Positions 42,668 through 43,670 of a DNA stretch of 44,313 bases are shown here, piece after piece. The notes under the pieces are model-generated. The model worked only from the letters and a program-made list of their open reading frames with translations, was not told the DNA's origin and made no database searches. This DNA comes from Gammaproteobacteria bacterium (lineage in GTDB: Bacteria; Pseudomonadota; Gammaproteobacteria; JAJDYQ01). Position 1 is the stretch's first letter. Each line of letters begins with the position of its first letter. The DNA lies in assembly GCA_022825085.1 (NCBI GenBank), contig JAJDYQ010000056.1, positions 1-44,313 on the forward strand. The letters are read 5' to 3'. A program made the translations under genes and the position numbers.

Positions 42668-43537
42668 TTAATGCCGGCCTGCTTCTGCGCTCGGTCTGAC
42701 AAAGCCGGCAGAGTTCTCAATAAACCCGGCCGACTTGACGGCATCATCCAGCGTCATCATCGTCTCAAGCAACTCTTTCATCCTTGATAGCGGCCACGCA
42801 TTCGGACCATCACTGAGTGCCCTGTCGGGTTCAGGATGTGTTTCCATAAAAACCCCGGCAACACCTGCGGCTATGGCGGCCCGTGCCAGCACCGGCACAT
42901 GCTCACGCTGACCACCGGAGCAACTACCCTGCCCACCGGGCAACTGCACAGAGTGCGTGGCATCAAACACAACCGGACACCCGGTATCACGCATCACCGC
43001 CAGCGCACGCATATCAGAAACCAGATTATTATAGCCAAAGGATGCGCCGCGCTCACAGACCATGATCTGATCGTTGCCAGCCACTCTGGCCTTATCGACG
43101 ACATTGCCCATATCCCAGGGCGCGAGAAACTGGCCTTTCTTGATATTGATCGGCTTTCCCAGCCCGGCGACACCCTGAATAAAATTGGTCTGGCGGCACA
43201 GAAAGGCCGGCGTCTGCAACACATCAACGACATCGGCGACCTCCTGTAATGGCGTATCCTCATGCACATCGGTCAGCACCGGCACACCCGTCTGTTGTTT
43301 TACCTTATCCAGTATGGTCAGTCCCTGTTCGATACCAGGGCCGCGAAAACTGCCTGCGGCACTGCGATTGGCCTTGTCGAAAGAAGACTTATATATGAAA
43401 TGAATGCCAAGCCCGGCAGTCACCTCCTGCAACTGTCCCGCTGTATCCAGGGCCAGTTGCTCACTCTCGATAACACACGGCCCTGCAATCAAAAAGAAAG
43501 GCTGATCGATGCCGACCTGAAAACCACAAAGCTCCAT
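42668..43537 (-). CDS. kdsA: KDO-8-phosphate synthase
   Basis: [56 protein letters not shown]. Confidence 0.98.
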
Positions 43538-43670
43538 TATGTCACCTTACCCTGTTCATTCATGCTGTGCGCGAGCACTGATAAAACCGATCAATGCCGG
43601 TGACGCTCACTGATTACCTTCTGGCCATCCTGCATACCGAGGCAGATTCCAGAATAAAGTATTCGGCGCA
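43537..43670 (-). pseudogene. pyrG: Highly deleted relic of CTP synthase (pyrG) 3' half
   Basis: Minus strand, in order: GICLGMQ (43650-43630), GQKVISERHRH (ends at 43594), GFISA-RAQHE, EQGKVT-TAA. The stop overlaps the kdsA ATG (TAATG); this is the normal pyrG position. Confidence 0.75.

Follow-up and report, generated by a model that had tools for sequence, protein, structure and literature searches.

Directly upstream of kdsA, this gammaproteobacterial genome carries a 136-bp relic of an additional pyrG, the gene for CTP synthase, which has lost its function. We suggest that pyrG was duplicated locally, probably in tandem, and that the copy beside kdsA then decayed into this relic; we put the probability of this reading at roughly 0.78. 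CTP in this cell is made by an intact PyrG encoded on another contig, and the relic is an ordinary rearrangement scar and no indication of host dependence for cytidine.

Genomes and comparisons

The window, that is the whole stretch of DNA analysed, is the entire contig C96 (44,313 nucleotides) of a MAG, here called G000, and positions refer to it unless another contig is named. G000 is 87% complete and consists of 108 contigs. As reference for the ancestral gene order we used the complete genome of its nearest sequenced relative, a sister species in the same genus (G005), and the comparison within the genus covered the genomes of seven species, including G000, G001, G003, G005 and G006. A further 80 proteobacterial loci came from a scan of genome contigs with KdsA; these carry distant KdsA proteins, and members of the genus are not among them. 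The relic was aligned to intact pyrG at the DNA level as a collinear chain with long gaps allowed, and its chain scores were set against those of 1000 shuffles and 1000 random genomic 136-mers. For the TIGR00337 profile the cut-off is 462.75 bits.

The relic and its place before kdsA

The kdsA gene and the parts of the relic are as follows, where C87 denotes the intact pyrG of G000 on the contig of that name.

42668..43537, minus strand: kdsA, intact, 289 aa; an ORF with 95% amino acid identity to KdsA of G005, and with Pfam DAHP_synth_1 on the identical Logan gene
43537..43573, minus strand: relic segment D, pyrG nt 1602-1638; 30/37 identical to C87, 34/37 to G005
43574, minus strand: one-base insertion (T), a gap in the alignment to C87 and G005, which shifts the frame between C and D
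43575..43600, minus strand: relic segment C, pyrG nt 1576-1601, in the native frame ..GFISA; 22/26 identical to C87, 23/26 to G005
43601..43628, minus strand: relic segment B, pyrG nt 1370-1397; 19/28 identical to C87, 20/28 to G001 and G003
43629..43672, minus strand: relic segment A, pyrG nt ~1104-1147, with the catalytic-Cys motif of the glutamine amidotransferase, RRILYSGICLGMQ; the relic reaches no further on its 5′ side

The gene kdsA is present in a single copy in the G000 assembly, as judged from the only tblastn match in the genome. In G005 the order is purD-pyrG-kdsA, and the stop codon of pyrG overlaps the start codon of kdsA (TAATG). The initial annotation, made from the window alone, had assumed that pyrG normally sits upstream of kdsA, and this holds well: an intact pyrG stands immediately before kdsA in five of the seven genomes of the genus and in 72 of the 80 other proteobacterial loci. 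The eight exceptions contained no convincing pyrG relic, only weak matches, all of them on the opposite strand. We also observed a kdsA match in G006 (C95:13017-13853) whose alignment includes two stops, a TGA and a TAA, and which could be a pseudogene or an overrun of the alignment. Downstream of kdsA in the window, on the minus strand, lies a HicA/HicB-like toxin-antitoxin pair (41672-42050).

On the minus strand, the 136 bp from 43672 to 43537 consist of four collinear pieces of pyrG, 68–86% identical to the intact pyrG of G000. The chain score of the relic is 98 against the C87 gene and 124 against pyrG of G005, as compared with a mean of 19 and a maximum of 32 for the shuffles (n = 1000) and a maximum of 38 for the random genomic 136-mers (n = 1000), and the sequence is hence of pyrG descent. 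The initial annotation had placed pyrG motifs in native order at 43537-43670, estimated that they span about 170 residues of the intact protein and concluded that several large internal deletions must have occurred. All of these motifs are present on the minus strand in that order and they cover residues 369-545 of the 545-aa PyrG; the relic lies where it had been placed, with an upper limit slightly further out, at about 43672. The overlap of its TAA with the ATG of kdsA was also correctly seen, the TAA being at 43539-43537 and its final A being the A of the start codon.

Two large pieces are indeed missing. Between segments A and B about 222 nt are gone (gene nt 1148-1369), and between B and C exactly 178 nt, precisely from one CCGGCAT repeat to the next, at gene nt 1398 and 1576. 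Both intact genes, that of G000 and that of G005, have CCGGCAT at these two positions, and segment C opens with it (43600-43594). We interpret the 178-nt deletion as a slippage or microhomology-type event, and inspection of the deletion junctions for microhomology, as had been proposed, was thus rewarded at one of them. At the A/B deletion no clear microhomology junction could be made out, as the gene has GGCCAGA at two places and the relic sequence has changed since.

The reading frame is broken as well. Frame 1 of the relic reads RILYSGICLGMQ-DGQKVISERHRH-TGA (ORF 43686..43591), also given as RRILYSGICLGMQ-DGQKVISERHRH-TGA, and the stop that closes this A-B frame, at 43593-43591, was created by two substitutions; GFISARAQHE follows in a second frame and the C-terminal piece is back in the first. 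Nothing 5′ of pyrG nt ~1104 is left, and with it the N-terminal amido-ligase domain and its P-loop are gone. Of the amidotransferase triad the Cys motif is kept, while FHPE (nt ~1531-1548) falls inside the 178-nt deletion, and no open frame holds a complete triad. A Pfam search with the 31-aa relic ORF gave no match, and no further pyrG fragments were found in the G000 assembly.

The four pieces differ in how well they have been preserved, and identity to G005 climbs toward kdsA (B ~61%, A 84%, C-D 90%). In segment A the aligned part, 43666-43629, corresponds to pyrG nt 1110-1147, is identical at 32/38 positions to C87 and likewise to G005, and matches the G005 locus by BLASTN with E = 7.8e-6. 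Of the four, segment B has diverged furthest; it is collinear with A and C, stays in frame with them and reads DGQKVISERH where the intact gene reads YGQTIINERH; an alternative alignment of its 5′ part, to pyrG nt 1354-1362, is possible. Segment D sits within an unbroken alignment to the pyrG-kdsA region of G005 at 93.8% identity. It also contains the Shine-Dalgarno-like AAGGTG of kdsA (43548-43543), five nt before the ATG, and the last ~30-70 nt of the relic are its best preserved stretch, probably as the carrier of the ribosome-binding site and 5′ leader of kdsA. A promoter scan for kdsA on the minus strand gave no site at threshold and no consensus promoter. By eye, a weak TTGCAT-N17-TATTCT with 8/12 matches can be placed across the junction between the adjoining selU fragment and the relic, which is speculative.

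The relic in other assemblies

We considered whether the relic could be an assembly artefact, a chimeric contig stitched together from short pyrG-like k-mers, and misassembly had also been among the explanations first offered. The contig end is only 640 nt away and lies in repeats, and the region is absent from the ORF track, both of which would fit an artefact. The sequence is reproduced elsewhere, however. The Logan contig SRR16351696_340 matches the relic and the adjoining 70 nt without a difference, and the ENA scaffold KELL22-1_SAMN22237328 scaffold_40884 is 99.2% identical over 2316 nt (window 43997-41682), including flanking sequence on both sides. The latter differs from the window by 18 SNPs, which suggests that it represents another strain or population, 0.8% divergent, and none of the 18 falls within 43537-43672. 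The 136 bases, with their selU fragment/A, A/B and B/C junctions, thus recur base for base in two assemblies that were produced by other software, one of them from a strain with SNPs on both sides, and the relic is not a misassembly. Furthermore, its pieces are about 80%, not 100%, identical to the intact gene and therefore cannot be mis-joined reads of it. The chance that the relic is an artefact is in our opinion practically negligible. A scan of metagenomes with the 24-mer across the A/B junction gave no match. As a separate observation, the ENA scaffold (L113 2317-2440) departs from the window exactly at 41681, inside hicA, and the toxin-antitoxin cassette differs between the strains.

Intact pyrG and the pyrimidine genes

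A search for an intact pyrG elsewhere in the genome, suggested when the relic was first described, found a full-length gene at C87:63-1697. It scores 815.9 bits against TIGR00337, covers profile positions 3-526 of 526 without stops, and encodes the P-loop GGVVSSLGKG as well as the GICLGMQ and FHPE motifs. Along its whole length it is 94% identical to pyrG of G005 at the amino acid level and 90.8% at the nucleotide level; in 90-nt windows the identity is even, with 74-88 of 90 positions in every full window, and shows no step near nt 1100 or in the tail. The purD gene lies upstream of pyrG in both G000 (C95) and G005, and on the strength of these comparisons we consider the C87 gene to be the vertically inherited one. 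We discarded the opposite assignment, with a native relic and a foreign intact copy, as the intact gene is 94% identical to that of the sister species and still has purD upstream. Exact-product look-ups of PyrG and of the ORF in the selU fragment found nothing on record.

The link to purD runs across two contigs, which probably join: the tail of C95 (14932-15069) and the head of C87 (4-141) share 138 identical nt, comprising the promoter region and the first 26 codons. The 3-nt tips at this overlap differ (CTC vs TGC; GAG vs GAA), which could reflect end errors at a coverage gap or hint at a second copy of the pyrG 5′ end. We further observed that an AbiEi/AbiEii toxin-antitoxin pair and an IS605-type TnpB (with a Cas12f1-like TNB domain) have been inserted between purD and pyrG (C95:11800-14900). 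The insert ends before the last ~70 nt upstream of pyrG and replaces a spacer of ~470 nt in G005. In that genome 312 nt flanking TnpB are contiguous at another location, where the element is probably present in an empty or miniature form.

The initial annotation had offered relocation of the gene and reliance on cytidine salvaged from a host as further explanations, and had taken the absence of pyrF from its usual place as a hint of a wider pyrimidine defect. Relocation comes closest, as an intact gene is indeed found on C87, but the functional pyrG did not move away; it is still beside purD, its ancestral upstream neighbour. As PyrG is intact with all three motifs and pyrF is likewise intact, on C30 (218 bits), the auxotrophy and host-salvage reading is unsupported, and with it the suggestion of a wider defect.

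A mixed bin would bring salvage back: the C87 pyrG would then belong to a co-occurring related strain, and the genome with the relic would lack CTP synthase and live on salvaged cytidine. G000 is an incomplete MAG in many contigs, C87 is only 4 kb long and unjoined to C96, and strain variants do exist, as the 18 SNPs of the ENA scaffold show. Nevertheless we find a mixture very unlikely. The C87 pyrG is not followed by kdsA, so its owner would need a kdsA elsewhere with a duplicated junction, exactly as found on C96, and the bin holds one kdsA only. PyrG and KdsA are equally distant from their G005 counterparts (94% and 95% identity), pyrF is intact, the contamination estimate is 0.59%, and a repeat family common to C87 and the window supports a single genome.

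The junction behind the intact pyrG

Homology of C87 to the pyrG region of G005 extends as far as TAATGG and no further. It is followed by ~40 nt that look like the opening ~40 nt of kdsA and have the offset expected of them. When two gaps are allowed, 25/32 positions agree with G005, and 0.45% of shuffles score as high; the resemblance is weaker to other kdsA genes and not significant against C96 or G001 alone. Behind this stub, C87:1745-1822 matches the 3′ tail of purD with its hairpin in G005 (83%, E = 8e-18). A novel junction is thus present behind the intact pyrG, of which the stub is the weak part. The start of kdsA followed by the end of purD is what would be expected after pyrG at the junction of a tandem or near-tandem copy, and this junction therefore argues for such a duplication. 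The purD-tail copy overlaps the real end of purD by only ~24 nt, and a variant in which a block bearing pyrG was inserted into the purD tail, without a strict tandem duplication, is therefore equally possible. The kdsA-side copy is the one that decayed under both variants. Just past the purD-tail copy, on the minus strand, lies a 170-aa ORF with predicted membrane-like segments (C87:1874-2383), which had no Pfam match and no homologue in the pyrG loci of the relatives.

The selU fragment, the repeats and the age of the relic

Beyond segment A the window contains two further features before the contig ends.

43673..44091, plus strand: partial duplicate of selU/mnmH (tRNA 2-selenouridine synthase), the 3′ 40% of the gene, facing the relic head-on; TIGR03167 positions 216-309, 62.7 bits
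44078..44313, strand not given: dispersed repeat copies, 26-28-nt palindromic repeats and the C-terminal part of a GIY-YIG nuclease, up to the end of the contig

At 43673 the selU copy begins and the pyrG relic breaks off sharply on its 5′ side. Over 418 nt the copy is 95.5% identical to C46:1515-1097; the intact selU is on C46. The similarity extends further, into the repeats downstream of selU: between window 43673-44313 and C46:1516-897 identity is 92.5%. The copied block hence carries its neighbouring repeat element along, as if flanking DNA had moved with the repeat/GIY-YIG unit. BLASTN finds the dispersed repeat family 92 times, spread over more than 25 contigs and in many cases at their ends, and Pfam recognizes GIY-YIG on the full-length copy of the nuclease on C87. 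Members consisting of palindromic repeats and whole or partial GIY-YIG genes were observed at the ends of C46, C53, C55, C65, C80, C87, C89, C95 and others, and the family is likely the cause of the fragmented assembly of G000.

Of 132 aligned nt, 19 carry changes specific to the relic, as compared with 7 specific to C87 and 5 specific to G005, and dS between the pyrG genes of C87 and G005 is 0.355, or ~0.18 per lineage. Judged from these figures, the drift of the relic has lasted about as long as the separation of G000 and G005. Between the selU copy and its source the divergence is 4.5%, with a dS of 0.108; the copy is younger than the relic, by this measure roughly a third as old. At nt 1140, 1379 and 1389, in segments A and B, the relic keeps the states of the outgroups where C87 and G005 share another base, which hints at a duplication before the split of G000 and G005, or at a donor from another lineage; nt 1374 and 1378 point the opposite way, and 132 nt are too short to decide.

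A second duplicated junction in the genus

In G003, too, pyrG and kdsA are apart, deep inside different long contigs (C10 and C13, respectively) and in ordinary chromosomal neighbourhoods. A junction stretch of 88 nt is found at both loci: 57 nt from the end of pyrG precede kdsA, and 31 nt from the start of kdsA follow pyrG. The two copies are 74% identical to each other.

L028 7945-8032: duplicated junction of G003, kdsA locus
L016 7579-7666, reverse strand: duplicated junction of G003, pyrG locus

The likeness to G000 is that the genes are separated, with a pyrG tail left before kdsA and a kdsA head after pyrG. The difference is that the relic in G003 is one contiguous piece and that both loci lie inside long ordinary chromosomal contigs. 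The duplication in G003 is an event independent of that in G000, since the sister species G005 keeps the intact arrangement. Upstream of kdsA in G003, a 123-aa ORF runs into the pyrG tail.

Discussion

We suggest the following course of events. The ancestor had purD-pyrG-kdsA with the overlapping TAATG, like G005 today. As pyrG and kdsA are both needed and overlap, they could be separated only after a duplication of their junction. A segment of ~2.3 kb, from the 3′ tail of purD to ~45 nt into kdsA, would have been duplicated locally, probably in tandem, and we infer that the two copies and their pyrG/kdsA junctions once lay adjacent on one molecule; C87 and C96 both end in dispersed repeats. 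The upstream copy would have been kept intact and is now found on C95/C87, where a short kdsA 5′ stub comes next and then the copied purD tail with its terminator. The copy on the kdsA side, being redundant, would have decayed by the ~222-nt deletion, the 178-nt deletion between CCGGCAT repeats, the 1-nt insertion, the TGA stop and ~14% relic-specific substitutions, the order of which is given here as we presume it. Later, everything 5′ of nt ~1104 would have been lost on the arrival of the partial selU and the block of GIY-YIG and palindromic repeats.

An intact gene with a C-terminal fragment of itself downstream has a counterpart in E. coli K-12, where icd and icdC flank the cryptic prophage e14 (PMC13626634). 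By analogy, a mobile element could have integrated site-specifically in the 3′ part of pyrG and brought along a replacement 3′ end, in which case the relic would be the displaced native end. As in the present case, icd/icdC comprises the intact gene of an essential pathway and a pseudogene fragment in the same orientation downstream, and this documented layout lends the idea some weight (PMC13626634). Mobile and repeated material (GIY-YIG genes, palindromic repeats, the selU fragment) abounds between the intact pyrG and the relic, segments C-D are slightly nearer to G005 (57/63) than to the intact gene of G000 itself (52/63), and the same junction is duplicated in G003. However, in the e14 case the phage supplies the working 3′ end, and icdC forms a single contiguous piece beside an att site and an integrase (PMC13626634), whereas here the intact gene looks vertical throughout and two internal deletions have turned the fragment into a mosaic. 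The even identity of the C87 gene to that of G005 leaves no foreign, element-borne 3′ end, and no integrase is seen in C87, the end of C95 or the end of the window, the gap between C87 and C96 not being assembled. The relic and the intact gene share no long identical core, their longest exact runs being 12-14 nt at ~80% identity overall, the kdsA-like and purD-tail sequence after the intact gene would go unexplained by an element-borne 3′ end, and both loci of G003 are in ordinary chromosomal neighbourhoods. An e14-type integration therefore fits poorly, and we regard it as distinctly unlikely.

Duplication of pyrG, which we favor, has its closest model in tandem duplication-random loss, as used for changes of gene order in mitochondria (PMC4223735). 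That model likewise starts from a duplicated segment, in which each gene then loses one of its copies, by decay to a pseudogene or by deletion, so that a new order and short relics result (PMC4223735); in the present case the surviving pyrG is that of the first copy, and the surviving kdsA follows the second. Unlike the mitochondrial case, this is a bacterial chromosome with overlapping genes, the gap has since been filled by mobile repeats and the partial selU, and the adjacency of the two copies is reconstructed.

It could also be proposed that the pyrG/kdsA overlap is a recurrent breakpoint in this gammaproteobacterial group, at which a repeat-associated process, for example GIY-YIG-induced breaks repaired with co-copied flanks, duplicates the junction each time, the pyrG tail being co-opted as an obligatory leader, ribosome-binding site or promoter of kdsA. 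The basis for this would be two independent events in seven species of the genus, and co-copying of flanking DNA during repair is invoked because the selU piece suggests it. As a general account we consider this unlikely.

In host-restricted and repeat-rich bacterial genomes, gene relics are short, frame-broken and riddled with deletions, with deletion bias and slippage between short direct repeats. The pyrG relic resembles these remains of housekeeping genes in all three respects, and both deletion bias and short-repeat slippage are seen in it. Unlike in host-restricted genomes, the function of pyrG has been kept here and a full copy remains.

We point out that the window alone suggests the loss of an essential gene, but that the whole genome holds intact pyrG and pyrF, so the relic supports no metabolic conclusion. 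What it does illustrate is how needed genes that overlap come to be separated: separation by way of duplication leaves reciprocal stubs, and these are seen twice in the genus. Such stubs permit dating, which would place the relic at about the split of the sister species and the selU insertion at about a third of that age, and they mark the places at which a repeat-rich genome has been remodelled.
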